From an uncultured Planctomycetia bacterium (GTDB lineage: Bacteria > Omnitrophota > Gorgyraeia > 2-02-FULL-51-18 > JAGOUK01), in contig CAYSFB010000008.1 of NCBI GenBank assembly GCA_964430735.1, positions 12,870-76,869 of the forward strand: a stretch of 64,000 bases of DNA, written 5' to 3'. The number at the start of each line of letters is the position of its first letter. The first letter of the stretch is position 1. The position numbers and the translations under genes were made by a program. The notes beneath the pieces are model-generated. The model searched no databases, was not told where the DNA came from, and worked only from the letters and a program-made list of their open reading frames with translations. Below are positions 7,425-63,371 of this stretch, in pieces.

Positions 7425-7436
7425 CGCCCGACCCCG

Positions 7437-10305: not shown

Positions 10306-10375
10306 TTGGACTAAGGTTTGATTAAACGCGCTTAACTTGGGGGTGGGGAACTATCGCCTGTTCAACGGATATGCT

Positions 10376-11990
10376 ATGCCCGGCTTATTAAATAATCTAA
10401 TAAGACTAATTTCATTAGTTTTGGTGGCCGCGTTCGGCCTTCAGGAGGTCGCTTGGGCTGTGCCTGCTCCGGCCCCGGTTGCGCTGTCCGTTTCGCTTGC
10501 CGAGATCGTCCGGAATCCGGCGCTGTTGCCGATCCCGGAGGAGGTGATGACGGTTGAGTCTCAGATCGCCGGAACCAACGGCAAACTGATCGTGCTCGTC
10601 CGTGACGCGCACACGAACTTCGACGCGCAGATGAACCTCGCCAAGGCGCTCGAGTTTTGGATGGACAGGATGCCGCTGGACCTGGTGCTTTCGGAAGGCG
10701 CTTCGGGCGACGTGTCGGTCGACGATGCGGCCGCGCGCTCGGGGCTCGCGCCGGACGACCTCCAGCGCGCCGCGCGGCGGATGGTGTGGGACGGCCAACT
10801 CACCGGACATGAATACTGGAATCTGCTGTCTCCCAAAAAGTTCTCGATCGTCGGCGTGGAAGATCCCGGGCTTTATGGCTCGGGTCTGAAGACATTTGGG
10901 GAGCTGGCCGACACCCGGCATCGGATATCGAAGGATCTGACGTCCGCGTCCCGCGCGATCAATAAGCTCAAGACCCGCCTCTATCCCCAAGCATTGACCG
11001 AGTATGAAGCATCTATTGCTGCTGCCGACGGACAACCGGACGTTTTGAAGCGATCGGAAAAACTCATGGCGCTCGCCGCCGCTTCCGGCGTGGACGCGTC
11101 GGCAGAACGCTATTCCAATCTGGCCCTTCTGCGCCGCCTCGCCGAAGCCGAAAAGACCATCCGTTTTGACCGGTTGAACCAGGAATTTGCGCAATTGTCC
11201 GGAGTCGCCGGAGGAGAGTCGGAGAGCGGTTTGGAAAAAATGCCCGCACAGCCGGCCGGCCTTCTGTCGCGGATTGAAACGCTGCTGGATGCGGCCGACC
11301 GCAAGGGCTTGTCGCGCGCCAATGCTCCGGAATTGGCGTCCTATGCCGGTTATCTGCGCTTGTTGGGATCGCTGGATCACGCGGCTCTTGCGGATGAGTT
11401 GGATGCTTTGGAGCGGGAAGTGTACGCCAAGCTGCTCCCGGACGCGACGCTCATGACGCTGCGGGAACTGGATCTGTATGTCGCCCGTACGACGGACGGT
11501 GTTTCGGTCCAACTCGACCGTTCCGGTTACGACCGCTGGGCGCGGGTGCGAAAAGAAGCGCCGACCGTCTCCTGGCAGGCATTCCTCAACGATCTTTTGA
11601 TCGCGAACGGTTGCGCCGAAGACTTGATTCCGTATCGCGAAGAATTGGAGGGGGCCGCCGGTCCGATCGACGAATTTTATCAGAACGCTTCGGACCGCGA
11701 CCGCGCCTTCGCGGACAACGCCGAACGCGCGATGGAGTCGGGCGGCGCATCTGCCGCGGTCCTCGTCGCCGGTGGATACCACACCCTGAACCTGATCGAC
11801 CTTCTCGCGGCCGAAGGATTCTCGATCGTAGTCATGACGCCCCGCATTACAATTTCCACCGACCGTGATCGCTACGAAAAGATTGTTCTCGCCTCTGAGT
11901 CTGCTTTTATGCCGGCCCTCTCCCGGACGGCCGAAGCATCCGGTCGATTGACGCGGTACGCCCGCGGACAAACAGGACCTGCCGCCAAAC
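10376..11990 (+). other. Shared N-terminal domain of the giant-protein family (copy 1 of 3). It contains the His motifs 'QDAH' and 'GG[YF]HT' and is possibly Tiki/TraB/GumN-like.
   Basis: Alignable by eye to 37246..38830 and 50523..52100. Conserved blocks: 'GTNGKLIVLVRDAHTNFDAQMNLAKALE', 'LVLSEGASGDVSVD', 'AGGYHT...L...GFSIVVMTP' and 'T.D.D.YE'. Confidence 0.6.
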
Positions 11991-46200: not shown

Positions 46201-49200
46201 GGTTTCCAGACGGAAGAAAACGATGTCCAAACGATCATAGATGAAACGTCCGGATTGCCGATCGGATACGGAGTGATAGCCGCCAATCCTGCCAAGCCGA
46301 CAACTGCCTCTAGTACGGGGTCAGCGGCCCGGCTGGCTGCGCGTGAGGGCACCGATCCTATGAGCGGAGCGGATCTGGGCCGTCAATTCGTCATCCCCGC
46401 TGCGACTGAGGCGGCTAAGCAGCGGATGGACCGGCTTCGCAGCAAATTGGATAAACAATTCCTGTCACGCAGCGCGGTTTGGAGCCCGCTTGCGGGTGAA
46501 AAGATTGTGTCCGATGCGTATGAAGAACTTGCCATAACGCTCGGCATCGCCCGAAATGACGACCCGGGGAGCTTGAAGAGCGGCAGGTACTACGCCGATT
46601 TGATCATGATGATGGAACTCCAGCGCGACGTGTTGAAGGCGCTGGTTAAAATGGCCGCCGCAGGTAAATTGGGGATCAATAGAAAGGAATACGAAGGGCT
46701 GATCAGACGGGGGGTTTTTTCTGCCGGAAGGGTCCTTCCCGAAGAGAGAATCAAGTATTATGCGACGGCGAACGGGTTTGATTGGATGTTAGATGCCGCC
46801 GTCACCGACGAGGAACGGAAGAAGCTCGCCAAACGCTTGCTGGGAACGACGCTCGCATACATTGATTTGAACGATGAATCTGAAGTAAACATGATCGGCG
46901 ATCTGGTCAGCGCACTGTCGGGTGTCAGCGAGATGAAGGATTCACGTCAGCGAGCGGAACGCGTGAAACAAATAATGGACGGGGTGGAACACGCCCGCAA
47001 GACCGTCGCGGAAGTGTCGCAGTGGGACCTGCTGCACCGCTTTGAGAAGAACAATCCGGGAGCATTAAGATTGGTCCGCGGCTTCAGGGACGCAGCGAAC
47101 GAACCTTATGTCGACTCGGAGGTCGGTAAACCGGCTTCTATCGGCAAGACGACTTTTTTCACGCATGTACCGGGACATGCGGATGACTTCTGGGAAGACA
47201 ACGCAAGGGGTGGTGTGGTGGTGGCCGATGTGCCGGTAGATTCCATCCAATTCACTTCCTGGGTGATGCCCGACGCGGAGACGGATGGATACGAGCCTCA
47301 GATCGGTGTTCAGGGTCGCGCGACGATTCAGCGCGTGTTCAGATTGGGCGGCAACTTGAACGGCTCGGACGCGCGGGAGTGGCTTGTGTATGGAGCCGCA
47401 ATGTGGGAAACGCTGAGCAGTTACGGGCAGCTGCTTCCGGACGGCGATTTGCTGGCGAAGGGTGATGACAGGAGAGACATTCGGAGACCGGAACAAGGGT
47501 CGCGGCTGGCGGATTCGATTTCTGACAGGCACGGCTCGAACCAGGTAATCCTGCAGAGAGCGCGGGAACGACTGGAGGCTTTGATGGCGCTTCCGGACGT
47601 TGATCGCATCAGCATCGACGAGAAGGAGGCGAATCAGTTCATCCCAAAAGAAATCAAGGCGCTGTTTGATGCAGCGGATCCGCAGGATGCGGAGCTGCCG
47701 TATGTGGTCGCGACCGGCGGCACGGCCAGGGATTTTGCGGTTGCGATGGTCGCGCATTCGGAGAAGAGGCAAAAGCCCTTCTCGATGCCGGATTCGACGG
47801 ATGTGGACATTCTCATTCCCAGCGGAAAGGAGCTCGCCGAACACGATTGGGATGAGAACGCTTTTGAGGTCCTTAAGGCCCGTTTACTGGAGGCCGCCCA
47901 AATAGATCCGGATTTAAAAAAGCTTACGGGGCAGACTCTGGATCCCATCCCCAGCCGCTGGCTCGAGGGGCGATTTACTTTTGAATATCAAATGCTTGCG
48001 GTCGGAAAGGGCAAAGCATTCAGCATCAGCCGGCTGGGCTTGACTCGAATGAACGGCAAATACATCCTTTTTGGCCACAGAAGCGCAATCAAGGATCTCC
48101 AAAGTAAAAAATTGAACTTATGGCAGGCGCCGGGCCTCAAGCTTGGCGAAGGCATGATTGCAAAAATGCTGGGAAAAGCTGCGATCTATAATGAGCATGC
48201 GGGTTTTGCCATGACGGAGGATCTGAAGAGCAAGATAAATGAAGAAATCATGTCGATGAGCCCGGACCAAAAACAAGAACTTCTTTTTTATATCAGGAAG
48301 CACGCTCTCCTAGTGCGGAGCGGGGATGATCCGGGTCCTAGAATTCATGCGGTGCTCAGGGAGCTCGGTGTTGATCTGTCTGGAGCCAGGCTCGCCGGAT
48401 CCCAGAACGACCCGGAAAGTATTCTTGATGATTTGAACGCTGAGCTGCCGGTCGTGGACCAAAAGAATCCGTCCGATCATCCGGCGGTCAGGGCGTGGTT
48501 GGAAGCCGGCGAAAGCGACGGATTCTTCGTGCTCCATAAAAATGCCCCCTTGGATCCTTATGCCACCCGGCCGATGGTGCCGGTGCCCTGGGTTGTCGCT
48601 GGATATTTGATGGATAAAGGGTGGTTGCAATTTCATGTTCGTAATAAAGAGGGCGAGGCAATCGCTTCCGGTGATGTTATCGCCACGTTGAGCCCGGATT
48701 CCGACATAGAATTTGGGGACATCGCACAAAAGCTGAGATCGGGGTATCTGGAATCTGGTCTGCAGGAAGGATTCAGCGGAACGATCCGGGATGAAGTGAA
48801 TTATCCGGCAAAAAATCTGATCGAGGTCATCATCGGTTCGGAGAAGGCTTCGGGGATCTTGTTGCTCAGTTCCGTATATGCGCCCTATCTCGATCTGCAG
48901 ACCCGTCAACGCCTGATAACCGGTGAGTTGGATCGTAGATTCGACGAGATGATCCGGCGGATGGAGATGACCCTGGAGCCGAATGAGCTCGATCTCCGCG
49001 AACTGGTTCGTGAAGCGTTTCAGCCCGCCTATCGGCTGCAGCGGTTGGATGTTATGTTCCGGTTGATCGAGGCGGTCCGGCCGAAGCTCGAAAGCAAATC
49101 ATTATTTCTGACTTCACTTTACGAGCGCACGATCCGGGCGGCTGGCCGGCGCGGATCCCTGGAGGGGATCGATCCGGAAATATTGAAAAAATTAGATGCC

Positions 49201-50407: not shown

Positions 50408-50436
50408 TTGAAGGCAGCTTGTGCCGAGGGTATACT
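50408..50436 (+). promoter_or_regulatory. Candidate sigma-70-type promoter for giant gene 3 (TTGAAG-N17-TATACT)
   Basis: TTGAAG at 50408-50413, a 17-nt spacer, then TATACT at 50431-50436, about 85 nt upstream of ATG 50523. No terminator separates giant 2 from giant 3, so co-transcription is also possible. Confidence 0.35.
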
Positions 50437-50522
50437 CCCCACAAGTTATTTACTTTTTCACGGCAGTGCTTTGCCCTCTATTCAAGGGCTTATCACAAGT
50501 CATAAAACGACGGGATCATTTG

Positions 50523-53500
50523 ATGAAAGCATTGGGCGTCAGCCGCTTGCGCGTTACCTCCTTTATTCTTTGCATGACTTTCGTCGCGCAGGACGCCGCT
50601 TTTGCCGCACCGTCGCCGATGCTCCCGCAACCGGCCTCTGCTTTCACCATTCCTCAAGTCGCTTTTCGACTCCCGGAATCTGTCGCCCAAATCGATGACG
50701 GCTACGCCGCGCCCAATGCCTCCAAAACACTTTTTCTTCTCCAAGACGCCCACACGAATGAGTCGGGTCAGATCAACCTGGCCAACGCGCTCCGACAGAT
50801 CCTTCCGAGCGAGGGGATCACCCACGTTTTTACGGAAGCCTCGCAAGGGGACATGTCCGTCGGGTATTTTAAAAAAGTGTTCGAGCCCAAGGTCATGGAG
50901 CCCGTCGCCATGTCGTACTTGCGCAAAGGCGTTCTGAAGGGGGATGAATACCTCGGACTGACTTCGGATCTGAACTTCACGATTTGGGGAGTGGAAGACC
51001 CTTCCCTTTATAATGCGGCGCTCGAGGCCTATAAAAAAGTGGCGGATCAGCGGACTGCTGTTCTGGGTTATCTGGACCGTCTGACGCGCACCGCCTCGGT
51101 TCTCAAGGAAGCTCTTTACGGTCCTGATTTGAAAAGCGTCGATTCGGCCCGCGCCGCGTACCTCAAGGGCGACAAACCGCTCACCGATTACTTCGAAGCG
51201 CTTCATGTGATGGCGAAAAAAACAGGGGTCTATCTGCCGCAGTATCGCCACCTCTCACGGCTCAAGGCGATTCGCTCGCTGGAGTCCCGAGTCGACTTCA
51301 AAGCCGCGGCCGCCGAACAGGATAAAGCCATTCAGTCGCTTCCGCAGCAGGTTCAATCTGATCTTCGGGCCGCGTCCCGGAAGAGCCGTTCACCGTTCCG
51401 TATCGGCGGCGACGATCATGCCGCGGACAAGGGTTTTTACGCCCTGCTCGAAGCGTCTTTGCGGGACGCCTCCGGCGCCGAAACCGCCTCAGCAAAAACC
51501 GGCTCCTATCCCGAATTGTTCAAGTATTTTTCATACCTCAAGGCTTCCAAAAAACTCGACGCTCAGGGCGTGCTGAACGAGATCGAGGCCCTTGAACGCG
51601 ACGTGTTCGGACGTTTGGCGGCCGCGGATGACGCCGCCCTTCTGGTCAAGCTCAGCAGGAACCTCGAATCGTTGACCCGGATGATTGAGCTCAAACTTAC
51701 GCCCGATGAATTCGCCGATTACCTTCGCAACGAGCCTTCATTCGACATCCGGATCATTTCCGGCTTTTTTAACAAAAAAATCATGGATCTGGCCAAACAT
51801 TACGACCGCACGGTGCTTCTGGAGGGGGAGTATTCCGAAGCTTCGGCCGCCGCCAAAAAGTTCTACGAGCTGGCGCTCGATCGCGACAGGGCCTTCATCG
51901 CCGGAACGCTCAAGAAAATGGACGCGGCCAAACTGGATAAAGCCGTCCTCGTCACCGGCGGGTTTCATACACCCAACCTCAAGGAACTTCTGAAGCGGAA
52001 GGGGATTTCTTACGTTTCGATCCGGCCGCAGGTTTCGCACGAAACAAACACGGATCGTTACGAGGATCTTCTCTTCCGGCAGCTCGCATCCGCCCAAAAA
52101 GCCGCCCGCGCGGCAACTTCTGCTCGCGCTTCCTCGTCCGGGCAACACGCCGCAATGACCGCCCACATCGAAATGCCGATCCCGGCGGTCCAGGCAGCCA
52201 GGCTCGCGATGGTCCGCGATTTTGCGGATGCGGCTCAGGCCGATAATCAAACCGTTCCCGCCGATCTGGGCGGAGCGCTCGCAGCCGCGCGTCTGGCGGT
52301 GAGATCCGGCGGCAGAAGCGCGGTGCTCGAATCACTGGAGGAGCGGGACTATCTGACGCCGGTTGTGCCGCTGGATCCGGCGACGGGTGTCGACACGGGG
52401 TATGCGACGGAGTTTCGTGAAGAGATCGCCGCCGCTCAAGGTATTTACAACCCGGGACTGATCAACGACACCTCCTCGACCGATATCCCCCAAAAAGTCT
52501 CCGAGTTTACGAATCGGTACAGGGCTTCGTTCTTCCGGATGGACAAGGATTACAACTATTTGGCCGAAGACAACAAGTATGCGTGGTTGAGGTTCAATAG
52601 AGGCAGGATTCCGGCGGAAAACGGCGGCGGTCCCAGCGGCCGTTTTGACCCGGGCCCCCGCAATCTCAGTATCAATCCTTATGCTGCGATGCCGGTCAAC
52701 TCTCAGATCCGCCTCAAACACATTGACCGCATTCAGCAATCCCTGCCGGACGAAATCCCCGTAGACGTACGGATCGACACGAATTCGGGCGAACTTATTT
52801 TAACCGACGTCGACGGGCTGGAATCGTCGCGGATTCCGCTCCTGCCCGAGCTTGCCGATAAAGCAGAAGAGTCAGCTTCTGATGAAGCGCTCCGGATCAC
52901 CGACGCTGACGGCTGGACGCGCGGCCCTTTCACAATTCTCATCATCAAAGGTGAGCGGGGCGGGGAAGCGGAACAACCCGTTGCGACCATTTTTATCAAG
53001 TCTGACCGGAGCAAAGGGGTGGTGGATGCGGTGCTGGTGCGGACAGCCGATCTGTCTCAGATGGTTTTGGACCCCGCTTTTGACGAACGGGTCGACGAGG
53101 GCCGGTTGCCGATCGGTATTTCGACCGGCCGTTCCGGATCGAATGCGTCCGTTCGGATGCGTCCGGACGAGATTCATGACCTGATCATTCTTTTTGAAAA
53201 GGATCAAACCCGTCTGAAGACAAATGCCCTGACGCCGCCGGTTGTGGACGACGTGATGTCCCAAGGTGCGGAGTTCTGGGAATCTGCGTTTCCGGCAGGC
53301 GTCGATGCTCCGGGCCTTCCGCCGGCGGCGGTCGACCGCGTATTCAACGGATTGGGCGATGCGGGCGACGCGATGTCAGATGCATTGAAGCGGCTGACTT
53401 CCGGTGCCCGGTTGGCGGCCGAATGGACGCGCAGAACCCTGCTTAAATGGGCAGCGGTCAGCGCGGGGTGGGGCGCGGTTCTGGCTCCGTTTAAAAAACT

Positions 53501-56500
53501 TTTGTACGCGGAACCGCAGAACAGCTGGGACGCCGCCGTGGACCGCACGATACGCAACTTGAGCCGGCGGATTTCGCTGGAAAAGATCGAACAGGGACTT
53601 GAAGGCGAACTGCGGAACAGAAACCTGACCCTGATCTCCGCTGTAGGATCTCCCAACTGGGGCGAAGACGGTGCGACGATCGACTCGCAGCAACAGTTCG
53701 GAATTTTTGAATTCAATTACGCGACGGGAACCGGCCGGGTCGTTAAGGACTATAAGGACGCCGCCGGTTTGCTGGCAGACCGCGAGCTCACCGCGGGGTT
53801 GAAGCCGTCTGCAGCCGGCCGGATTCAGGAATTCGTCCAGCTGCGGTTCGCCAAAACGAACCGGCCGCTGACCCAAAAGTGGTCGGACCGGTCGTTTTGG
53901 GTCCGGATCGGCAATGGACCCGCCGGTTCCAGCGGCACGACGCTTCGGTACCTGTTCCGTTATGATCACGACCGGTATCTTATGACGGACCTCGACGGGG
54001 AAGAGGTTCTGGGCTATGCCGACCGCGACGCTGTGACCAACAGCGGATTCAAATCGTTGTCTGTGGACTTGAGAGAGTGGCTCCGGAACCGCGAGGCCTT
54101 CATTGCCGGTCAGCATCGCGCTTATCCGGATGCCGCCGCCAAGGATCCCAAGGCGCTTGATGCGATCACCGAGATGAACTTCATGGTCGCCGGAGACCGG
54201 AATAATCCCGTCTTCTTGATGTCCGCCCCGTATGAAGATACGGTGCCTTCCAACGGCGGCGTTTATCGTCCGCTGATTTACGCCCCGCACTGGGACAGGC
54301 ATTCCGACGGGACATTAAATGCCAGGCCGCTGCAGATCCACACGAATCCCGCCGCGATCGTCGCCGACATGGAAGGGGATGAGCGCAGCATCGGGAACGG
54401 AGTTGAGCGGCGCGTGGCGCCCCCCAAGCGCGCGGCCGCTTACGAGGCCGTTTCCAAGGCGCTCGAAGGCGGATACTACCTCCGTCAGGACGCGGCGCTG
54501 GTGCTGGGTAACGAGCAGCTGCGCGGAAATATCGAACTTTTTGAATACCGGGGCAAGGATGCCGCCAAGTCGGCCGATCAGATCCTGAACCTTCACCTGA
54601 GAAAAATCCGAGCGCACCAAAGCCGCTTCCGGTCGTCGACCTACGGCGAGATGGCGGAAAAGCTGAAGTCTGAGGATCCGGCCGAATGGCGGAATCTGGA
54701 TCGGCAAATCCGCGGCTGGTGGCGCAAGACCGGGGAAGCCAAACCTGCGGCTCCGGCCGTCCGGGCAGTCAGCGATAGTTTGCTCAACCTCAATGAGCAG
54801 CAGGTCAGCGGTCTGCTCAACCGCTACGCCGATGATACCGCCGAATCCGGCATCATCTACGAAGAATTAGCCGGCGGAAAAATTGTCCCTGCGTTCATCC
54901 GAATTCCCGGCTGGTCCTACTCGGCGCGCAACGTTCACTTCGCTTTACTCAAGCCTTTGGCCGAGGAGCTCGACCGCCGCGGCCTGGACAGCTCCAATGT
55001 GCTCAGTCCCCAGGTCCTCGCGCACCTGCTCGAAAAAGTCCGCCAGCAGCGCCTCGACCGCGCCCGCCCCGAAGGCGCGGGCGCGCGGTTTGCGGCGGCA
55101 TCCATCGTCCGCTTTGCGGCCGATTTGGCATTGGATCTTGCGGATGCGGTGCGAGCCCTTTGGGTCGGCTGGACCCTGCCGAAGGATCCCGCGCTTCAAA
55201 CAGAGAGATTCCTGGACCGGATCGAGCAGGAGCCCATCGTTCTGCAGGCAGAGAGCGAAGAACGCGTCATCGCCATGGCCAGACGGCATCTCCGCAGGCT
55301 TATGGCCGGCTATAGTCTGGAAGCCATGCAGCAGATTCCGGCGGGAATCACGCATACGATCGACCGGGACTCCCCCCGGACCCAGTATGGCCGTCCGGAC
55401 GCTCTCAACCCGGAACACATCATCACCGAGAATCATCCGATCCTGACGATCCGCCTCACGGACGCCGAGTCGTTGAGGCGTAAGGTCCGCAGGAATGGCG
55501 CCATCGTTTTCATCGGTCCTCCGGGAGCGGGCAAGGGCGAGCAATCCAAGTATCTCCGCAGGGAGTTCGGCGCCGCTGTGATCGGCCCCGGCAACTATTT
55601 CCGAGGTGTCGACAAGCTCAAGGAGCTGGGCGGCGTCGATGTTCCGAATGACCCCAATCTGGAGTACTTCGACGAAGCGGCGCTCACACAGATTTATCGC
55701 CACATCCAGGGCATCCTCGACCGCCAAAAAGCGGATCTCGCCGACATGAGAAGCGGCGGCCTCATGAAGGACGATTCCACGATAGAAATCATCAATTATC
55801 TTCTTTCCTTCGACGTCTTTGCCAATGCGCCCCTGCTGGTATTCGACGGTTTTCCGAGGACGACCGGGCAGTATGATGCCATTCTCGAAGGCCGGGTGAA
55901 GGTCGGGGGCCCCCAGGGGCGCGCGCTGAAGATCGGTGCGCATATCGTCATGAATTTTTCTTCCGATGCAGTGATGCGGGAGACGATTGAGCGGCGCTTT
56001 CGCCGCCCCGACCGAAGCGGCCGAGCCGACGCGGACAAGGAGATCCAGAGAGCCGAGACCTACAACCGTGAAACGCGGCCGATTGTCGACTTCCTTCTGA
56101 ATCGGCCCAACACCATCCGCCTCTTTGCCGACGACCGGCATCCGACAGATCCCGCCGCCAGCATCCAGCTCGCCACAAAGGAGCTGGAGGATGGACTTCG
56201 AGCCATTGTCAACGGCGCGCGGTTGGCAGAAGGCGTCGGAAATTCGGACTTTAATTTGCTGGTCCAACATGCTGGAACCCGGATTCGTGATACGGTAGAA
56301 GCGCTGCAGTTGTCGGACGAAAAAGGACTTGCCGACGCGGATCATGAGGCGGGGGAGCAGCTTAAAAAAGTATTCGAAGTTCTCTACGCGGGAAATGTGG
56401 AAATTCTACCGGCGGCCCCAGGTCACCATACGGACATCAAGTTCATCAAAGGAGAGAACCCCAGGCGGCAGCTGCACATTGAGTTTCATCCCGCCGATGC

Positions 56501-59500
56501 GCAGAATGCGGAGCGCGAAATGGCCCGCCAGCTGGTGCGACTCGGAATGCTTCTTTTGGTTCTAGACCCATCGGTGCATAAGACCTCCGAGGCCATCCTC
56601 AATCTTCAGAGAGATCGGTTCATGAAGGCGGATATTTTGCTCACGCGCACTCGGTCATCGCACCAAGACCCGCCTTTTTCCCGCACCGACAAGATGAAGA
56701 TCGAACGCGAGATGTATCAGATCATCCAAATGACGGATGAGGAGCGTGCCGCGCATGAGGCGATGATCAAGGTTGCGCAGGCCGAAGACCGTGCCAAAGC
56801 CGAAAGACAGCGCCGGTTGGATGTCGCCGCCGGAAAAATTGAACCCCACGTTTCCTCGGCTCTCAGCCTGTACGTGAGTCAAACCACGCATATGATCGAA
56901 AAGACCCGGAGTCTAGGGGTTCTTGAGATTTCCTGGATGGCGTATGCGCCGGACGTAGTTAAAGTGATGATGATTTCGGACAGCGCGGGCCGGCAGGAAG
57001 CGCTCGCGGATCTCATGGCATCCATCATCAATGCCACGATGCAGGCGGCCGCGAAGTCCGGGCTTTGGGAAACGCCGGGACGGGGTGCCAAGTTCGATCC
57101 GATCCAGGTGCAGGAGTTGTTGGAGAACGTGGCTCAGGGATTGATCAATTTTGCACGGTCGCGCCGTGCGGCGGGCGAAGAACCCACGGATATCAAGACC
57201 CAGCTTCTTTCCGCGGCCGATTTGATTGTGCCGAACGAACAAATTTACTCCTACCTCCGTACGCCACGGTTCAACCGGTGGCTGCGTGATGCCATCGACA
57301 AGCGAAGCGTAAAAACGAATGCCTCGGATACAGTTGCGAGTGCCTCAGGGGCGGCAGAAACGGTCAAGCAAATCATGGGAGCCGTCGCGATGGCGGCGGC
57401 CAGGCCCGATTCGGCCGGTGTTCTGCTCATCGGAAGCACGCGGACCGGTTCTAAGACCCAGCTCGCGTTGCCAGCGCCATCGAGTTCGATCGCCTCGGCA
57501 TCACCCGGGTCCACATCGGCAGCCGGCCGCGCTCAGGCCGGCATGCCCGCGGCGGGATTGTTGGATTTTGTCGGAGACGCGAGAGGATATGTTTTTTCAT
57601 TCGAAGAGGGATACACGGCCAACCCTGACATTCTGGTCCCGGCGATGTCTCACGCGCTTCAGGCCGCCAAGACGGTCGAGCAGTGGCTCGCGCAGCCCTC
57701 GGACGAGTTTATCGGTGGACTCAGAATTTCTGAGCTTCTTCAAGCCGAAGACGGGCGGGTGGGACAGATCGGCCGCTGGCTCGCCTATGTGGCTTCGCTG
57801 TATTTTTACCCGAACACGTCGGCTTCCGCTGACGACGGTCGCCGCAGTCCGGGCACGATCGAAGCGGCCTGGAACGCGTTCAGGAACCGCTCCAAACTTG
57901 TCACTGACGACACCTTGATTGAAGCCATCGAGACGATGAAGAGCGTCAAGAACAATCCGACCGTCTACAGCAAAACGGAGCTGTCCTTCGCCTGGTACGT
58001 CGCGTTCTTGATCGCTTCCTATCTCGAGCCTCTTCAGGAGTCAGAAAAAAAATCCGCGGCCGAAGTGATCGATAAGACTCTCGTTGAAATGGGCGAAAGA
58101 CCCGATTACGCGGTTTTTCAATTGATCCGGGTGATCGTGGTTCAGATGCAAATGAAAGCCATGAAGTTCGACACGTCCGTTCAAACGGAAAAGCCCAAAG
58201 CGCGGCAGGCGGCATCCGCTGCGGACACATCCTCAAACCCGCAGTTTGAGCCGATCGCCGAAACCGCCGTGGAAGCTCCCCGAGGCGTTCAGGCCTTGAG
58301 GGTGACCAATACGGAAGCCAGCTTTGAGGGATTTTTGGCAAGAGTCTCAGAAATCGGTTCGTCCGCCGCCGACGCGCTGGATCAGGAAGACACAAAGATC
58401 GCGATCCCCGTGCTGCGTTTACTCATCGGCGGACATCTTGATGCCGATCCTGACGACAAGACGGGCGACTACCAAACCACGCTCCGCAACGTCAAACGCA
58501 AGACACATCCCGACATCGTCACCAAGGACGAGACGCTGGATGCCACCGCGCGCGAAACGCTGGTGGCCATGCACAAGGCCCTGAACGTTATCGAGACCTA
58601 CGTTGATTCTCCTTTGAACCTCAAGGAAACCAGGTCGGCGGTCAAGGAGCTGCGTCAAACGGTTTCCAAGCATCTTCAGTGGAAGTCCGAGATCACTCAG
58701 CGGCTGGCGCAGTCGGTCGAGGAGCGGCACCGGGAGCTGATCGAAGCGTTGAAGCAAATTGGCGAGCAGCAGAATTCCGGCATGAAGAACGTTGGCGAAA
58801 AACTGGACGCATTGACCCGTCAAATAGACGAACTGGTCAAAACGGGCCGGTCGAACTCCGAGCAGCTGAGCACTTTGTCTCAGCAGGTCCAGGAAATGAA
58901 GCAGCAGATCCGGTCGTCGGGAGAAACTCCGTCCCAAGCCGGCGCGCGGTTTGCGCAGAGCGACGCGGCTGTTGTTAAAGTGTTGTATGCGGCGCCGGTG
59001 ACTGAGAAGACCCTGAAGGCTGTGAATGCGGTGCGGACGATCGCTCAGTCGTTCGGCGGTGCGGCAGAGTTGGTTGAAGAATTTTCTGAACAAGCAGATG
59101 AGGCGTTTATTCGGGCGGCGATCGAGAAACACCGTCCCGCGATTGCAGTTTTCCGTTCTAACGTCACGTTCACTCCCGAGCTGATTGCGTTCGCCAAGCA
59201 ACACGGCGTGCAGGAACTTCTGCGGGCGGGAGCGGGTTACGACAACGTGGACTTCGAGGCCTCCGTGCGCGAGCAGATCAGTCTTGCGACCACCGGCGGC
59301 AACGCCGAGGCGGTCGCGTATTTGAGTATGCGGTTCTTGCTGGCGGCCCTCGGCGGTCAGGAAATGACCGCTTCAGACGTCGATTTTTCGAGCGATCCGG
59401 CTTGGTCCGAAGTCGGACATGATCCCGCAGACTTCACCAAGGCGCTGGCCTCCTCCGAAAAGGCGGGTCGCGGCGTGATGCCGGCCGATCAGTCGGCCGC

Positions 59501-62500
59501 GGTGTTCAAGAACCTCTCGGCGGACCAGGTCAAAGAACTTTTTGCGAAGCTCGAAGGAAAAACAATCAGCCTTCTCGCCTTCGGACCCGTCGCACAGGCG
59601 TTCGCCGCCAAACTCCAAAAGGTCAGGGAATTGACCGGTGTCAACTTCACGGTCGTCGCGTACTCGCCGGCTCTCGCGTCCGGAGACCCGTCCCGCGCCA
59701 AGGCCGCGGCCGAGCTCGGAGTGCAAATCGCGAAGACCAAACAGGAAGCGATCAGCGCGGCCAACGTCCTTTCGATCCATTATTTTGACAAAAATGATCC
59801 GGTGACCGCCGCCGAATTGGCCGGTAACGCGGGCTTGGAAGTCGTTCTGAACACCGCTCGGCTCCACTCGCTCGATCTCAAGGAAGCCCTGCCGGCGCTG
59901 CTGGACCGCGGCGTGCGCGTCTACACCGACGCCGATCTCGCCAAAAAGGGCGCTGAGCTGCCGGAAGTCGCGGAGTTCAAGACCAAACACCCCAATTATG
60001 CGCAGAACCTGATCCTGGTTCCGCACATCGGCGCGTTCACGCAGACCGCGCTCGACGGAGTCGAAGACGCCCTGCGCGACGCTCTCATTCTGTCGCTTGC
60101 CAAGCTCACCGACGAAGAGCCGACGCTCGCGGTGACGCCCGGCTTCACGCTCAACATCGTGAATAAGATTCCGCTTCTGTCGCCGACCCAAATTGAATGG
60201 AAGAAAGGTTATGATGCCGCGCGAAAAATCATCGCCACGCGGTCGATGCATGCAACTTACGGCCGCAATGCGGACATCGCGGCCCGCGACTATGGCAAGG
60301 CGGGCGATCCGCTCAGCCAGGCCTACTGGTCCGGCAAGGCCGCCGGACACCGCTCGATGGCCAGCGGCGGCCGGTACACCGCTTCCGGCGCGCGCCTCGC
60401 CTCCAAAGCCGCAACCGCCAAGTTCCTGGCTGCACTCGAGCCCTATCGGATTGCCGGTACAGAAAAGGCCCGAGCCATCCAAGGCAACTACACAAAAGCG
60501 GCCAACGAGAACCTAAATAGTTACGTGCCGCGTCCTAAAGGCAACGAATCGGGCCGCTATATCGCGCTCGACTTCGGCGGCACCAACTTCCGGGTGCTGA
60601 TCGTCGATATGAAGAACGGCAAGGTCATCCGTAAAAAAATCCACCCCTTGACGATTCCAAAGCAATTGATCACAAGCGATTCCAGCCAGCTCTTCGGTTT
60701 TATCGCCCGCGAAATCAAAAAAGTCATGGCGAAGGAAAAGTTGAGCTTGGACACCGTTCAGAACCTCGGATTTTCGTTCGCGTTTCGCGTGAAGCAGATC
60801 TCCATCGACCGGGGGACCCTGGATCATTGGACGAAGGAATTTAAAGTCAAGGGCGTCGTGGGCGAGGAAGTGGTCGGGCTCCTGAACCAGGCGCTCGAAG
60901 ATGAAGGTGTGAAGAACATCCGCGTCAGAGCTCTCGTGAACGACGTGATCGGAACGCTCGTGACGCGGCCAGATGCCGCGCTTGCCGCGATTCTGGGCAC
61001 CGGCACGAACGGCGGATATTGGGACGAGCTGACTGGATTCGCCGTGAACACCGAATGGGGTGCATTCAAAGGGGCCTGGAAAGTCGCAGCCACCGAAGCG
61101 GACCGGATCGTGAACCGCCGCTCCGAGAAACCGGGTAAACAGCTCTTCGAAAAGATGGTGAGCGGAAAATACCTCGGCGAAATCGCCAGGACCCAAATCA
61201 ATCTGTTGCGCAAGGACGGATTCTTGAAAGGCAAAGCATTACCGCGCCTGACCCGTCAGGGCGGTGTCACGACGACGATGCTTTCGAAGATTCTCGAGGA
61301 CAGGACCAAAACACTGGCCCAGGTCGGCCGGTATTTCCCCGGAACGTCCGCGAACGAGCGGAAAGTGATCCGTGCCGTGGCTCACGCCCTTTTCACCCGT
61401 TCAGCCGACCTCTTCGTCGAAGCGGTTTACGCCAACCTCAAGCTTTCCGGCGCGTACGCCAAGTCCGACGAACTGATCGTCGCGATCGACGGGTCGGTGT
61501 ACAGCAAATCGAAGTTTTATCGGCGGCAGGTCCGCCGCGCGACCCGTATTCACATGGCGCGTTGGGGATCCCGCCCGGTGCGCTATGTCCAAACGACCGA
61601 CGGCAGCGGCCTCGGTACGGCCCGCATCGCGGCCATCGCTTCCGCGGCCGCGCGCCTTGCGAATTCGAACCCGGCTGATTGGCGCATTGACGCGGTGGAG
61701 CATCTCAACAATGCCATTCGCCGGATCAAGGCCTCGGCCGCCCAGCTCAGAGCCCAGGCCCTGATACTGGAGAATGTGAAGGATAGGGATGCCAACTTCA
61801 CTGCCATAAATGCGGACATACTGGACCATCATGCGGTCATTCTGAGTAAATTGCTGGGGATCTTGGACAAGACCGGTCATCAGCATCAAAAGGCCACGGA
61901 TCCGGTCGTGCGATTAATGATCCAGGAAGATTCAAACAGAATTCTCCCCGCGCTTGAATCGATGGCTTCCAATCTCAAGGGGCAGATGTCCATCTTGGCT
62001 GATGCGCCGATCAATACTGGGGAGCCCGCGTGGCGGACCGGGCTCAAGGACGCCATGATCGACCTGATTCTGTTGGAGGCTGTCATATCCAACACCTTGA
62101 TCAACAAGAGCGAGACCGTCCCCGTGCAGGGCGAGTGGAGCGTTACGGTGTTGAGCCATGGGCCCAAGCAGCATGTGTTGATGATCCGGTCCGGCGACAA
62201 GATTGTCTGGCGGCATTACGTTTGGCTTGGGGATTATGATGATATCTCCATTTTCACGAAGCGGAATCCGGCCAAGCTGGTTGCGGGGGCGCTGTTAAAA
62301 AATTATAAGACCTGGTCGGTTGTTTCGCCTGTGAATGAAGCCGGGTTCGCTGAGGCCGTACAGGGGATTCTTGTGGCTGAGTTCGGAATGGCGCTTCGCG
62401 GCACGTCCGGCGCCCGACTGGCTAGCACCGGTAGTCTGGCGATCGCGCAGGGCGTTCTCGAACCCTATTTGAAGAATGTTGCGGCAGCGATCAATCTGCG

Positions 62501-63371
62501 CGGACAGGCTGAATTGGCCCTGTCGGATGGCGAGGTCGCCGTCGTGATCGATTTAATTCAGAAGGGCGCCCAAGTGAGTTGGAAGCGCGAAGGCGAAACG
62601 GAGTGGCGGCTCGTGATCGAAGATCAAAACAGCGGCGCCATCAAGAAGATCTGGGCACCGGTGGTTCAGGAGACCCGTCTGAGCGCCGAGAACGCGCTCA
62701 AAGCGGACCTGGCGGTGTTCGAACTTCTCCTGGCAGCCGCCAAGGAATTGAATCTTCCGATCCGGCCGGTCAATTACCGGTTGAACGTGACGCAGATGCT
62801 CTCCGCGATCGACGCCGAGAACCGCGCCGACATTGTCGAAAAATTAAAGGTGGTTTTGACCCGCGCGCACGAGCAGGGCTTCGGATCGTTTTTCTATGCG
62901 GCCGAGGACGCCGCGTGGGGTCTGCCGCAATTCGAGCGTGCCAAGGACGCCTCACGTCCCGGCCAGGACGCGCCCGAAACGACGCTGCGCAACCTCAAGG
63001 CCTTGAACCCGGAAGGGGAGATCGGCTACGGGATTTTTTACAAGCAGAACAAGAACGAGTTCATACCTCTGATGAGTACGCTGCTGGCTCAGAACCTGCT
63101 GACGCAGATCCTCGGTCAGCCGGCCGACACTCAGGAGGCCAAGGACGCCAGGTCGAAGGCCCTGGCCGCCCTGGAGCCCATCTTCCAGAAGCTCACCCGT
63201 TCGACCATCCGTCTGAGCGGCAGCGAAGCCTTCTTTACCGGAGTCCCGGTGAACGCCGACGCGGACGCCTACGACCCGTACTCGGTCAAAGGCCTCTCGC
63301 TCCGCGGCTACATCGACCTCCTGGTCTACCTCCAGGGCCTGCGCAAAGCAACGGTCGACACAGCCGCCTAA
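50523..63371 (+). CDS. Giant multidomain protein 3 (about 4,280 aa). It has the paralogue-shared signal peptide and N-domain, followed by embedded adenylate-kinase-, D-2-hydroxyacid-dehydrogenase- and hexokinase-like modules and a coiled coil.
   Basis: Uninterrupted ORF. The track places the start at GTG 50421. ATG 50523 is preferred because it gives a signal-peptide-like 'MKALGVSRLRVTSFILCMTFVAQDAAFAAP'. 'SKTLFLLQDAHTNESGQINLANALRQ' and 'VLVTGGFHTPNLKELLKRKGISYVSIRP' align with giants 1 and 2. Confidence 0.85.
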   Translation: MKALGVSRLRVTSFILCMTFVAQDAAFAAPSPMLPQPASAFTIPQVAFRLPESVAQIDDGYAAPNASKTLFLLQDAHTNESGQINLANALRQILPSEGITHVFTEASQGDMSVGYFKKVFEPKVMEPVAMSYLRKGVLKGDEYLGLTSDLNFTIWGVEDPSLYNAALEAYKKVADQRTAVLGYLDRLTRTASVLKEALYGPDLKSVDSARAAYLKGDKPLTDYFEALHVMAKKTGVYLPQYRHLSRLKAIRSLESRVDFKAAAAEQDKAIQSLPQQVQSDLRAASRKSRSPFRIGGDDHAADKGFYALLEASLRDASGAETASAKTGSYPELFKYFSYLKASKKLDAQGVLNEIEALERDVFGRLAAADDAALLVKLSRNLESLTRMIELKLTPDEFADYLRNEPSFDIRIISGFFNKKIMDLAKHYDRTVLLEGEYSEASAAAKKFYELALDRDRAFIAGTLKKMDAAKLDKAVLVTGGFHTPNLKELLKRKGISYVSIRPQVSHETNTDRYEDLLFRQLASAQKAARAATSARASSSGQHAAMTAHIEMPIPAVQAARLAMVRDFADAAQADNQTVPADLGGALAAARLAVRSGGRSAVLESLEERDYLTPVVPLDPATGVDTGYATEFREEIAAAQGIYNPGLINDTSSTDIPQKVSEFTNRYRASFFRMDKDYNYLAEDNKYAWLRFNRGRIPAENGGGPSGRFDPGPRNLSINPYAAMPVNSQIRLKHIDRIQQSLPDEIPVDVRIDTNSGELILTDVDGLESSRIPLLPELADKAEESASDEALRITDADGWTRGPFTILIIKGERGGEAEQPVATIFIKSDRSKGVVDAVLVRTADLSQMVLDPAFDERVDEGRLPIGISTGRSGSNASVRMRPDEIHDLIILFEKDQTRLKTNALTPPVVDDVMSQGAEFWESAFPAGVDAPGLPPAAVDRVFNGLGDAGDAMSDALKRLTSGARLAAEWTRRTLLKWAAVSAGWGAVLAPFKKLLYAEPQNSWDAAVDRTIRNLSRRISLEKIEQGLEGELRNRNLTLISAVGSPNWGEDGATIDSQQQFGIFEFNYATGTGRVVKDYKDAAGLLADRELTAGLKPSAAGRIQEFVQLRFAKTNRPLTQKWSDRSFWVRIGNGPAGSSGTTLRYLFRYDHDRYLMTDLDGEEVLGYADRDAVTNSGFKSLSVDLREWLRNREAFIAGQHRAYPDAAAKDPKALDAITEMNFMVAGDRNNPVFLMSAPYEDTVPSNGGVYRPLIYAPHWDRHSDGTLNARPLQIHTNPAAIVADMEGDERSIGNGVERRVAPPKRAAAYEAVSKALEGGYYLRQDAALVLGNEQLRGNIELFEYRGKDAAKSADQILNLHLRKIRAHQSRFRSSTYGEMAEKLKSEDPAEWRNLDRQIRGWWRKTGEAKPAAPAVRAVSDSLLNLNEQQVSGLLNRYADDTAESGIIYEELAGGKIVPAFIRIPGWSYSARNVHFALLKPLAEELDRRGLDSSNVLSPQVLAHLLEKVRQQRLDRARPEGAGARFAAASIVRFAADLALDLADAVRALWVGWTLPKDPALQTERFLDRIEQEPIVLQAESEERVIAMARRHLRRLMAGYSLEAMQQIPAGITHTIDRDSPRTQYGRPDALNPEHIITENHPILTIRLTDAESLRRKVRRNGAIVFIGPPGAGKGEQSKYLRREFGAAVIGPGNYFRGVDKLKELGGVDVPNDPNLEYFDEAALTQIYRHIQGILDRQKADLADMRSGGLMKDDSTIEIINYLLSFDVFANAPLLVFDGFPRTTGQYDAILEGRVKVGGPQGRALKIGAHIVMNFSSDAVMRETIERRFRRPDRSGRADADKEIQRAETYNRETRPIVDFLLNRPNTIRLFADDRHPTDPAASIQLATKELEDGLRAIVNGARLAEGVGNSDFNLLVQHAGTRIRDTVEALQLSDEKGLADADHEAGEQLKKVFEVLYAGNVEILPAAPGHHTDIKFIKGENPRRQLHIEFHPADAQNAEREMARQLVRLGMLLLVLDPSVHKTSEAILNLQRDRFMKADILLTRTRSSHQDPPFSRTDKMKIEREMYQIIQMTDEERAAHEAMIKVAQAEDRAKAERQRRLDVAAGKIEPHVSSALSLYVSQTTHMIEKTRSLGVLEISWMAYAPDVVKVMMISDSAGRQEALADLMASIINATMQAAAKSGLWETPGRGAKFDPIQVQELLENVAQGLINFARSRRAAGEEPTDIKTQLLSAADLIVPNEQIYSYLRTPRFNRWLRDAIDKRSVKTNASDTVASASGAAETVKQIMGAVAMAAARPDSAGVLLIGSTRTGSKTQLALPAPSSSIASASPGSTSAAGRAQAGMPAAGLLDFVGDARGYVFSFEEGYTANPDILVPAMSHALQAAKTVEQWLAQPSDEFIGGLRISELLQAEDGRVGQIGRWLAYVASLYFYPNTSASADDGRRSPGTIEAAWNAFRNRSKLVTDDTLIEAIETMKSVKNNPTVYSKTELSFAWYVAFLIASYLEPLQESEKKSAAEVIDKTLVEMGERPDYAVFQLIRVIVVQMQMKAMKFDTSVQTEKPKARQAASAADTSSNPQFEPIAETAVEAPRGVQALRVTNTEASFEGFLARVSEIGSSAADALDQEDTKIAIPVLRLLIGGHLDADPDDKTGDYQTTLRNVKRKTHPDIVTKDETLDATARETLVAMHKALNVIETYVDSPLNLKETRSAVKELRQTVSKHLQWKSEITQRLAQSVEERHRELIEALKQIGEQQNSGMKNVGEKLDALTRQIDELVKTGRSNSEQLSTLSQQVQEMKQQIRSSGETPSQAGARFAQSDAAVVKVLYAAPVTEKTLKAVNAVRTIAQSFGGAAELVEEFSEQADEAFIRAAIEKHRPAIAVFRSNVTFTPELIAFAKQHGVQELLRAGAGYDNVDFEASVREQISLATTGGNAEAVAYLSMRFLLAALGGQEMTASDVDFSSDPAWSEVGHDPADFTKALASSEKAGRGVMPADQSAAVFKNLSADQVKELFAKLEGKTISLLAFGPVAQAFAAKLQKVRELTGVNFTVVAYSPALASGDPSRAKAAAELGVQIAKTKQEAISAANVLSIHYFDKNDPVTAAELAGNAGLEVVLNTARLHSLDLKEALPALLDRGVRVYTDADLAKKGAELPEVAEFKTKHPNYAQNLILVPHIGAFTQTALDGVEDALRDALILSLAKLTDEEPTLAVTPGFTLNIVNKIPLLSPTQIEWKKGYDAARKIIATRSMHATYGRNADIAARDYGKAGDPLSQAYWSGKAAGHRSMASGGRYTASGARLASKAATAKFLAALEPYRIAGTEKARAIQGNYTKAANENLNSYVPRPKGNESGRYIALDFGGTNFRVLIVDMKNGKVIRKKIHPLTIPKQLITSDSSQLFGFIAREIKKVMAKEKLSLDTVQNLGFSFAFRVKQISIDRGTLDHWTKEFKVKGVVGEEVVGLLNQALEDEGVKNIRVRALVNDVIGTLVTRPDAALAAILGTGTNGGYWDELTGFAVNTEWGAFKGAWKVAATEADRIVNRRSEKPGKQLFEKMVSGKYLGEIARTQINLLRKDGFLKGKALPRLTRQGGVTTTMLSKILEDRTKTLAQVGRYFPGTSANERKVIRAVAHALFTRSADLFVEAVYANLKLSGAYAKSDELIVAIDGSVYSKSKFYRRQVRRATRIHMARWGSRPVRYVQTTDGSGLGTARIAAIASAAARLANSNPADWRIDAVEHLNNAIRRIKASAAQLRAQALILENVKDRDANFTAINADILDHHAVILSKLLGILDKTGHQHQKATDPVVRLMIQEDSNRILPALESMASNLKGQMSILADAPINTGEPAWRTGLKDAMIDLILLEAVISNTLINKSETVPVQGEWSVTVLSHGPKQHVLMIRSGDKIVWRHYVWLGDYDDISIFTKRNPAKLVAGALLKNYKTWSVVSPVNEAGFAEAVQGILVAEFGMALRGTSGARLASTGSLAIAQGVLEPYLKNVAAAINLRGQAELALSDGEVAVVIDLIQKGAQVSWKREGETEWRLVIEDQNSGAIKKIWAPVVQETRLSAENALKADLAVFELLLAAAKELNLPIRPVNYRLNVTQMLSAIDAENRADIVEKLKVVLTRAHEQGFGSFFYAAEDAAWGLPQFERAKDASRPGQDAPETTLRNLKALNPEGEIGYGIFYKQNKNEFIPLMSTLLAQNLLTQILGQPADTQEAKDARSKALAALEPIFQKLTRSTIRLSGSEAFFTGVPVNADADAYDPYSVKGLSLRGYIDLLVYLQGLRKATVDTAA
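55490..56110 (+). other. Adenylate-kinase-like module inside giant protein 3
   Basis: P-loop 'AIVFIGPPGAGKGEQSKYL' (55505-55546) and the NMP-binding 'LLVFDGFPRTTGQYDAIL' (55833-55862). Confidence 0.65.
59130..60120 (+). other. D-isomer-specific 2-hydroxyacid dehydrogenase-like module inside giant protein 3
   Basis: 'IAVFRSNVTFTPELIAFAKQHGVQELLRAGAGYDNVDFEA' (catalytic-domain G.G.DN.D motif) and 'LILVPHIGAFTQTALDGVEDAL' (the C-terminal xPHIxxxT motif). Confidence 0.5.
60530..61640 (+). other. Hexokinase module inside giant protein 3
   Basis: 'GRYIALDFGGTNFRVLIVDMKNGKV' (hexokinase signature LDLGGTNFRV, 60558-60605), 'ALVNDVIGTLVTRP...AILGTGTNGGYWDE', 'EWGAF', 'FEKMVSGKYLGEIAR' and 'VAIDGSVYSK'. 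These occur in the order and spacing expected for the hexokinase fold. Confidence 0.75.

Follow-up and report, generated by a model that had tools for sequence, protein, structure and literature searches.

Giant proteins that carry a signal peptide or a transmembrane (TM) segment and are tiled with glycolytic and gluconeogenic enzymes, kinases, methyltransferases, HEAT repeats and LOG/Lysine_decarbox domains have been described from the bacterial phylum Omnitrophota in two preprints, and one of the published giants contains nine hexokinase domains (bioRxiv 10.1101/2023.11.21.568195; 10.64898/2026.06.07.730766). Processing of such giants has been suspected, and West-Roberts et al. state that information on the cleavage points is lacking (bioRxiv 10.1101/2023.11.21.568195). 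The multi-enzyme giants are known from sequence only. Here, a 64,000-nucleotide stretch of the Omnitrophota contig CAYSFB010000008.1 was analysed over its whole length, which is referred to as the window. It contains three very long open reading frames (ORFs) on the + strand, G1, G2 and G3, and the subject of this report is the last of them:

50523..63371, + strand: coding sequence of giant protein 3 (G3), 4,282 amino acids (aa) from the ATG at 50523, identical to the public protein P0137.

G3 begins with a signal-peptide-like N-terminus, which is followed by an N-domain resembling hydrolases of the TIKI superfamily, a series of cargo modules each preceded by a short motif, and a conserved C-terminal module ending in Ala-Ala. 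The motif that separates the cargo modules is a pentapeptide, G-A-R-[L/M]-[A/S], enriched about 200-fold, and the cargo consists of a hexokinase, an adenylate kinase (ADK)-like nucleoside monophosphate (NMP) kinase, a dehydrogenase resembling D-3-phosphoglycerate dehydrogenase (PGDH) and four dark modules. An earlier note on this DNA had described a single protein of about 4,300 aa carrying hexokinase, ADK-like and D-2-hydroxyacid-dehydrogenase-like modules; the single protein was confirmed, and the three assignments hold by Pfam, homologues and model matches. Our preferred reading, to which we assign a tentative probability of roughly 0.4, is that G3 is an exported modular polyprotein of a large Omnitrophota family, which would be cut at the pentapeptides to release enzymes acting outside the producer cytoplasm.

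G3 shares with the Omnitrophota giants/Archaeovorins the phylum, the signal peptide or TM segment, and the presence of many unrelated enzyme Pfam domains in one chain. The giants of the two studies were delimited by thresholds of at least 10,000 aa (Nielsen & Lui 2026) or at least 30,000 aa (West-Roberts et al. 2023), whereas those of the window have 4,282-6,150 aa. For the published giants, C39 peptidase and SecA-like domains have been reported towards the C-terminal end, and dockerins as well; none of these features was detected in the window giants. The embedded-enzyme architecture itself is not singular and fits a kind of giant protein already described. The earlier note had called it highly unusual, which does not hold within Omnitrophota, where enzyme-tiled giants, hexokinase included, are on record and G3 is one of thousands of relatives. 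What seems new is that a single family accounts for all three giants, together with the GAR[LM]A punctuation and the Ala-Ala/Ser-Ala C-terminus. In neither preprint is there mention of a linker motif, of an N-domain of the TIKI type or of a C-terminus ending in [AS]A (10.1101/2023.11.21.568195; 10.64898/2026.06.07.730766). The family-wide N-domain, the punctuation at the protein level and the conserved C-terminal tail lie beyond the account given in the earlier note.

Two further kinds of system are close in organization. The MARTX toxins are secreted proteins of several thousand residues that, like G3, have conserved ends and a variable, recombining central array, in their case of effectors. 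Their effectors are separated by unstructured linkers with a short cleavage consensus, small-Leu-small (PMC2900308), and the N-domain of G3 shares its TIKI fold with one of these effectors, RRSP (PMC6254334). In contrast, RTX/haemolysin-type repeats (Pfam E<=1), the InsP6-activated cysteine protease domain (CPD, Peptidase_C80) and a C-terminal type I secretion signal were not detected in G3, which has a Sec-type N-terminal signal instead; its motif is G-A-R-[LM]-[AS], and the cargo of its family is made up of metabolic enzymes and regulators rather than known toxins. On this comparison, G3 resembles MARTX in logic only and is not a member. Viral polyproteins and polymorphic toxins, like G3, combine many units in one product, where conserved processing or delivery parts accompany swappable cargo. 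However, the G3 gene is cellular and chromosomal and lies among ordinary genes, neither immunity genes nor a mobile-element context was seen there, and the processing of G3 is putative.

The open frame of G3 extends upstream to a GTG at 50421 (50421-63371, + strand; 4,316 codons), and the module and aa numbers given for G3 follow this 4,316-codon numbering. The ATG at 50523 is the likely start, as judged from the alignment with G1 and G2 and from the sequence around it. A GC content of about 59% favours long spurious ORFs on both strands and most of G3 is without a Pfam match, so that the frame could in principle have come from a chimeric assembly, from an array of pseudogenes or from chance in GC-rich DNA, and the modules would then be decayed gene remnants. 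However, the ORF was found identical on three independently assembled contigs, namely two Logan assemblies from different runs and a 101,870-bp NCBI contig, and G3 is therefore not an assembly artefact. In addition, the catalytic residues of the hexokinase and ADK modules are intact, the peptide motif is kept despite synonymous codon change, and thousands of homologues have the same architecture. The probability of an artefact is negligible, and this explanation is already effectively refuted.

The first elements of G3 are as follows:

50523..50606, + strand: signal-peptide-like N-terminus, MKALGVSRLRVTSFILCMTFVAQDAAFA with AP after the A-x-A site; basic n-region and hydrophobic core, aligned with G1 and G2.
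50607..52193, + strand: conserved N-domain of about 530 aa with a TIKI/TraB/ChaN/erythromycin-esterase fold and a large helical insert; D-A-H at 50745-50753, the E of VFTEAS at 50835, RD.AF at 51879-51896 and GGFHT at 51957-51971.
52194..52208, + strand: first motif after the N-domain, AARLA, with a second AARLA copy at 52284-52298.

The signal-peptide-bearing N-terminus that had been proposed for G3 was recovered by eye and by hydropathy; its features are those of a Sec signal peptide, with a basic n-region followed by a hydrophobic core of 12 residues and by A-F-A. The hydropathy profile shows this segment as the sole strongly hydrophobic stretch in each of G1-G3, where no further transmembrane segments by which the topology would alternate were found at a Kyte-Doolittle (KD) value of >=1.5 except inside folded domains. 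A signal-like segment is present in 94 of the 114 family representatives with complete N-termini; the N-side is the more positive one in 92 of these 94, and a small-x-small site follows the helix in 91. The public gene calls of G1 (6,109 and 6,121 aa) and G2 (4,347 aa) begin downstream of the segment (window 10337-10460 and 37246-37327), and automated annotation would thus overlook the export signal.

These N-termini bear on a different explanation, namely that the proteins are membrane-tethered metabolons, in which an uncleaved N-terminal anchor would hold the bulk of the chain in the producer cytoplasm to serve its own central metabolism, with or without processing. Such an arrangement has a parallel in the 46% of Omnitrophota long proteins that are predicted to be TM-anchored with a cytoplasmic bulk, and all the recognisable cargo is of the cytoplasmic type. 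However, the charge distribution in those 92 members puts the N-side inside and hence the bulk outside, and the frequent small-x-small site also speaks against an uncleaved anchor. We consider this explanation quite improbable, and further evidence on it is given with the enzyme modules.

G1-G3 are homologous to each other solely across the first ~560 residues, at 27-31% identity. The N-domain has an alpha+beta fold with a parallel beta-sheet core and a helical insert of about 300 aa, and the Pfam models of the TIKI superfamily do not detect it. D75-x-H77 and E105 are invariant in 15 sequences, GG[FY]HT is present in all three window paralogues, and the first acidic residue is Asp, not Glu. 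The Asp-x-His, Glu and His residues probably correspond, as judged from the aligned sequences, to the 2His/2Glu catalytic motif described for the TIKI superfamily, including the TIKI-family endopeptidase RRSP (PMC6254334). Its fold and the type of its catalytic residues would make the N-domain a highly divergent new branch of this superfamily, and it is a candidate protease. It differs from the TIKI/TraB/PrgY/GumN/ChaN/erythromycin-esterase superfamily in being fused to thousands of cargo residues. Several characterised superfamily members, namely the ChaN lipoprotein, TIKI and TraB/PrgY, are said to be extracytoplasmic, which also speaks against the membrane-tethered metabolon.

A profile search with the N-domain against 1.84 billion cluster representatives (50% identity clusters) gave 9,783 clusters with E<=1e-3, of which 6,497 reach E<=1e-30. 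In all of the 150 best-scoring representatives listed, the longest of which has 7,416 aa, the domain is N-terminal, and the length range of the family is about 1.5 to 7.4 kaa (thousand aa). A word-index homologue search yielded 12 N-domain relatives only, compared with the 9,783 clusters of the exhaustive profile search. The N-domain family is too divergent for k-mer prefilters and is without a Pfam model; with ~6,500-9,800 clusters, it is among the larger families that have no Pfam model for their defining domain. A genome scan gave 203 N-domain matches, of which the best 80 were kept and correspond to 78 loci. These lie almost all in Omnitrophota metagenome-assembled genomes (MAGs), some of them deposited under other labels, with at most 7 loci per MAG and the genes often in tandem.

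The separation of the modules by the pentapeptide is the second main result. In the window, [GA]AR[LF]A has 25 copies, all in the reading frames of G1-G3 and 0 in other frames, and GAR[LF]A was observed 17 times in G1-G3 compared with 0.15 expected from residue shuffles. The 74 related proteins from the 78 loci contain GARLA 149 times (0.64 expected) and GARMA 50 times (0.12 expected), and 146 mutually divergent representatives obtained in an independent search contain GAR[LM]A 450 times (2.25 expected). The earlier note had seen GARFA and GARLA as bounds of the dehydrogenase module; both are real, at 58941 and 60387, and belong to this far wider pattern, in which the candidate sites amount to about 1.8 per 1,000 aa. 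Information is confined to five positions, [G>A]-A-R-[L>M>A>F]-[A>S>G], with no conservation in the flanks. Because synonymous variation occurs at each of the five codons, the constraint acts on the peptide; for the same reason, together with the unconserved flanks, a DNA-level repeat or recombination site was ruled out as the cause of the motif. A literature search for GARLA/GARMA returned unrelated uses of the words only.

The motif sites lie outside all Pfam envelopes, and both of the modelled instances fall in low-confidence, disordered linkers, where the AARLA after the N-domain has a pLDDT of <50. Among the 146 representatives, the first site comes right behind the N-domain (median aa 585), and modules have a median length of 268 aa. 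The motif variant differs between genomes (chi-square p ~1e-27), as seen when loci of the MAGs CAYJVC01, CAYODQ01 and CAZBAY01 were compared with the window; one MAG uses GARAA/GARMA and another GARLA/GARLS, while G[VST]R[LM]A is the form of low-GC MAGs. Among the paralogues of one genome, motif position 4 is uniform in 6 of 7 genome sets, the window included (p 0.4-1.0; 0.025 in the remaining one), and position 1 shows marginal heterogeneity, while the N-domains of paralogues with a uniform motif are only ~30-45% identical. A variant that is specific to the genome and uniform among its paralogues implies a shared, co-evolving reader. Self-specific motif variants, which would have favoured processing in cis, found no support, the variants being homogeneous among the paralogues of one genome.

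The genome-specific motif would suit any shared binding partner, and an alternative is an uncleaved surface or periplasmic scaffold, that is, an anchored or secreted beads-on-a-string enzyme array acting on prey-released or environmental material, in which the pentapeptide would be a flexible-linker or docking element to which, for example, an export chaperone or HEAT/Arm/TPR modules from the family would bind. HEAT, Arm and LRR modules are indeed found in the family, a role of embedded glycolytic domains in the extracellular pre-processing of sugars was proposed by West-Roberts et al. (bioRxiv 10.1101/2023.11.21.568195), and cleavage at the motif is deduced rather than directly observed. On the other hand, a five-residue motif with uninformative flanks, placed exactly at the domain borders, is more typical of protease sites, and hexokinase, ADK, PEPCK, sigma-70 and CsrA depend on ATP or nucleic acids, neither of which would be expected outside a cytoplasm. 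We regard the scaffold as unlikely, although as more probable than the other alternatives.

The C-terminal end of G3 is also shared:

62409..63368, + strand: conserved C-terminal module (aa 3997-4316), opened by GARLA at 62409-62423 and ending in ...LQGLRKATVDTAA-COOH.

By phmmer, the only homologues of this module are the extreme C-termini of P0182, P0272, P0271, P0258 and P0265. The tail of complete family members has the form ..LP..(~10 aa)..QGAR[ML]A..(~7 aa)..[AS]A-COOH, and AA or SA is the terminal residue pair in 101 of the 146 representatives, in most cases 7-8 residues past the last GAR[ML]A-like motif. Ala-Ala ends all three window giants, as ...TVDTAA in G3 (63330-63368), ...VKSAA in G2 (50326-50367) and ...AAVAA in G1 (28721-28786). 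The [AS]A tail could be a recognition tag for a C-terminal-processing/PDZ protease, or a sorting signal. Iteration of a family-wide C-terminal profile recovered only 9 of 26 complete C-termini at E<0.01.

The three recognisable enzyme modules of G3, each of which is opened by the motif, are located as follows:

55080..56213, + strand: ADK-like cargo module (aa 1554-1931), opened by GARFA at 55080-55094; a 140-aa N-part without an assigned fold, then the ADK-like fold at 55503-56120 (aa 1695-1900).
58941..60386, + strand: PGDH-like module (aa 2841-3322), opened by GARFA at 58941-58955; divergent D-2-hydroxyacid dehydrogenase fold with an insert of about 60 aa.
60387..61646, + strand: hexokinase module (aa 3323-3742), opened by GARLA at 60387-60401; Pfam envelope 60504-61637, with all catalytic and substrate motifs.

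The motif strings on which the earlier note had based these assignments all occur in the order that it gave, namely GPPGAGKGEQS at 55515 and VFDGFPRT at 55839 in the ADK-like module, AGAGYDNVD at 59226 and VPHIGAFT at 60018 in the dehydrogenase, and LDFGGTNFRV at 60567, LVNDVIGTL at 60933, GTGTNGGY at 60996, FEKMVSGKYLGE at 61146 and AIDGSVYSK at 61482 in the hexokinase. The profile search that it had suggested placed the hexokinase and the ADK above the gathering thresholds, whereas the 2-Hacid_dh pair fell just below them and was secured by homologues and Foldseek.

In the hexokinase module, both Pfam domains lie above gathering, in order, and span a full-length enzyme (Hexokinase_1, PF00349, E 9e-45; Hexokinase_2, PF03727, E 9e-42; 153 and 143.5 bits compared with cut-offs of ~24). 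The module aligns end to end with each half of human HK1 (E 3e-98), where LDFGGTNFRV corresponds to the phosphate-1 loop, WTKEFK to the sugar-binding Thr-Lys, and LVNDVIGT to the Asn-Asp holding the catalytic base; GTGTNGGY, NTEWGAF, FEKMVSGKYLGE and the adenosine motif IDGSVYS are aligned as well, and the sugar-binding Asn and the two sugar-binding Glu are likewise kept. Its nearest free-standing relatives are hexokinases of 414-444 aa from Omnitrophota MAGs, at 35-39% identity. It is 45% identical to a module of the related locus L021, and both modules are flanked by the motif on each side (GARMA in L021), at different positions in otherwise unrelated proteins.

The ADK-like module scores 35.4 bits with Pfam ADK (PF00406), above the gathering value of 26.8, and is far under every NCBIfam Adk equivalog cut-off, the best being 51 compared with 187 bits. 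The best PDB match is 3cm0, the Adk of T. thermophilus (E 8e-10), with the arginines aligned. The P-loop GPPGAGKGEQS (Thr replaced by Glu), the NMP-site Arg (GNYFR), the Arg of VFDGFPRT and a short LID with an Arg/Asp cluster, RRFRRPDRSGRADAD..RAETY, are present, and an insert of about 45 aa lies within the NMP-binding region. On the Pfam and NCBIfam scores, the module is a divergent member of the NMP kinase family and not an orthodox, housekeeping Adk. It has relatives in L014, P0138, P0203, P0231 and P0182.

The PGDH-like module scores 22.3 bits with 2-Hacid_dh (PF00389; gathering 24.6) and 18.5 bits with 2-Hacid_dh_C (PF02826; gathering 25.1), both just below. Only four homologues were found among 5.8 billion proteins, all of them D-3-phosphoglycerate dehydrogenases (best E 2.6e-11), and phmmer against the PDB gave E 4e-5. 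The AlphaFold model has a pLDDT of 61 overall and 82-95 in the NAD-binding domain, and PHGDH structures are its top Foldseek matches (E 7e-14), which is partly circular, the alignment behind the model itself consisting of PGDHs. The module keeps AGAGYDNVD, the catalytic Arg (NTAR) and the catalytic His (PHIG), where Arg and His are invariant and the alignment of the Glu is ambiguous. The GxGxxG loop is degenerate, AFGPVA in G3, whereas the related L014 module keeps GAGDIG. Because of this loop, cofactor binding is doubtful and the G3 enzyme may be impaired.

The catalytic residues are thus intact in the hexokinase and the ADK, and the dehydrogenase is partly substituted. The suggestion that the modules are inactivated binding modules is accordingly unlikely for the hexokinase and the ADK, which have kept their residues, and may apply to the dehydrogenase.

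The scores and identities further indicate that the embedded hexokinase and ADK are divergent paralogues and not housekeeping copies, which argues against the membrane-tethered metabolon introduced above, given that the ADK is far under the housekeeping Adk models and the hexokinase only 35-39% identical to its free-standing counterparts. In favour of that explanation, KEGG-based surveys recovered hexokinase from no more than 25 of 176 complete Omnitrophota genomes, as could be the case if the enzymes were hidden in giants. However, the cargo is shuffled and differs by paralogue and genome, which is not expected of housekeeping metabolism.

The extent of this shuffling was seen when the window modules were compared with all loci and representatives by phmmer: the N-domain was found everywhere, and each cargo module had 0-6 relatives. 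The cargo modules are hypervariable and shuffled. P0182 (3,941 aa, on a 34,433-bp Logan contig), to which G3 is most closely related, has the G3 modules 3743-3996 and 1932-2840 and the C-terminal module in a different order, together with 2-Hacid_dh, ADK, hexokinase and mannitol dehydrogenase modules. The set of hexokinase, ADK and dehydrogenase therefore recurs as a combination. Across the family, the metabolic cargo includes PEPCK, FBPase, GAPDH, RmlD/epimerases, PRTase and LOG, and the other cargo includes protein-kinase/APH folds, methyltransferases, HAD, HD, histidine phosphatase, HEAT, Arm and LRR; most modules match nothing. Regulators are represented by sigma-70 regions 2 and 4 and CsrA, and such cargo only makes sense beside DNA or RNA. 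Hexokinase modules occur in 6 of the 146 representatives.

One locus, L002 (4329-15960, GCA_964506075.1, GC 0.42), has a different arrangement, in which the N-domain is a stand-alone secreted-type protein of 543 aa. Separate genes come next for a PGK+TIM protein (1,182 aa), for a PGM_PMM-type protein (1,568 aa) and for one further protein. All three of these proteins start with a signal-peptide-like segment of their own, after which they have 'DLR[VAP][ST]A' in common, and the first two share a C-terminal domain of about 190 aa. The GARLA motif is absent from the L002 proteins. On these sequence features, the locus looks like a split version of the same system, and the fact that its equivalents are separate proteins speaks against an uncleaved scaffold.

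If the reading of G3 as an exported and cleaved polyprotein is followed, the Sec system would move G3 across the cytoplasmic membrane, and cleavage at the pentapeptides would split it into separate proteins, where the protease would be its own N-domain or one genome-specific trans-acting enzyme. The freed modules would most likely act outside the producer cytoplasm, on or in a host or prey cell, because the cargo depends on ATP, NAD and S-adenosylmethionine (SAM) and differs sharply between paralogues and genomes. Hexokinase and ADK together would constitute a self-sustaining, ATP-recycling sugar kinase pair, and these two modules of G3 and P0182, with the sugar/acid dehydrogenases, may form an ATP-recycling sugar-phosphorylating unit. 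Action on a host or prey fits the predatory or episymbiotic lifestyle proposed for Omnitrophota.

A number of points weigh against this reading. The signal-peptide call was made by hydropathy and charge rules only. The TIKI superfamily also includes esterases and a haem-binding protein, and a protease role of the N-domain is not established; moreover, genome-specific variants combined with N-domains of ~30% identity are explained by a single reader acting in trans no less well than by self-processing. Cleavage is what we infer, the motif could instead serve docking or export without being cut, and ~14% of the 146 representatives show no motif. ATP-dependent enzymes have no obvious substrate supply or role in the periplasm, the route into another cell is not evident, and no processing protease, translocation device or secretion system was found in the neighbourhood of the giants. 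Furthermore, several family hexokinases (P0261, P0271, P0258 and P0182) are without the Asn-Asp dyad and EWG, while those of G3 and L021 are canonical, and the family may, as judged from these residues, mix active enzymes and pseudo-enzymes. Part of the probability is kept for explanations not yet conceived.

The family makes the processing question testable, since it offers a precise and abundant candidate site with genome-specific variants, an N-terminal candidate protease fold and excisable modules. Should the cargo be delivered to other cells, intact metabolic enzymes and regulators of transcription and translation, rather than toxins, would make up an effector repertoire of a new kind. 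A bolder version, which we consider improbable, is that G-A-R-[L/M]-[A/S] would be a cleavage code, at which the N-domain or one genome-specific protease would split the exported precursor into active central-metabolism enzymes (here hexokinase, ADK and dehydrogenases) and regulators (the sigma-70 and CsrA modules of other family members), and that these would be delivered into a host or prey cell, where they would rewire metabolism and gene expression. If true, the system would combine a cellular version of the viral polyprotein with auxiliary metabolic genes of the phage type, and it would be a key to the processing of Omnitrophota giant proteins generally.

The remaining modules of G3 and the two paralogues are as follows:

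52284..55079, + strand: two cargo modules of G3 (aa 622-994 and 995-1553), split by GARLA at 53403-53417; no Pfam and no PDB sequence match.
56214..58940, + strand: 909-aa cargo module of G3 (aa 1932-2840), opened by GARLA at 56214-56228; coiled-coil stretch at its end, at ~aa 2700-2840.
61647..62408, + strand: 254-aa cargo module of G3 (aa 3743-3996), opened by AARLA at 61647-61661; no Pfam/PDB match; related to the first module of P0182 (aa 569-792).
37246..50370, + strand: giant protein 2 (G2), 4,374 aa, the paralogue directly upstream of G3; same N-domain, six [GA]AR[LF]A motifs and a methyltransferase module; corresponds to P0193.
10337..28789, + strand: giant protein 1 (G1), 6,150 aa, a paralogue with the same N-domain and ten motifs; corresponds to P0221/P0283; the start codon is uncertain.

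For the four dark modules of G3, Pfam at E<=1 and phmmer against the PDB gave nothing usable. Modules 622-994 and 995-1553 have no relative among the 78 loci or the 146 representatives. The 909-aa module gave coiled-coil noise only in Pfam and no PDB match, and it has a close relative in P0182 (aa 1195-2052, E 4e-244). The modules of G1 match PRTase, protein kinase/APH, methyltransferase, RmlD/epimerase and sigma-70 region 4; the matches to sigma-70 region 4 and helix-turn-helix (HTH) models lie at window 24848-25000 (aa ~4838-4888). Sigma70_r2 and CsrA are present in relatives (L014, 20207-21331; P0138, aa 4045-4087), and in L014 the CsrA is fused ahead of the ADK module.

No tRNAs were found in the neighbourhood of the giants. 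Their neighbours are ordinary genes, which encode an S8 subtilase fragment, oligopeptidase F, RsmB, alanine dehydrogenase/PntB, an amino-acid permease, DUF502, an FMN reductase, a MORN protein, an SF1 helicase, ABC-F and a pseudouridine synthase. The ABC-F protein of the window falls into one cluster, at >=90% identity, with a protein of 'Candidatus Omnitrophota bacterium'. The MORN-repeat protein (162 aa, MORN_2 E 1.5e-12) is encoded right downstream of G1, at window 28832-29320.

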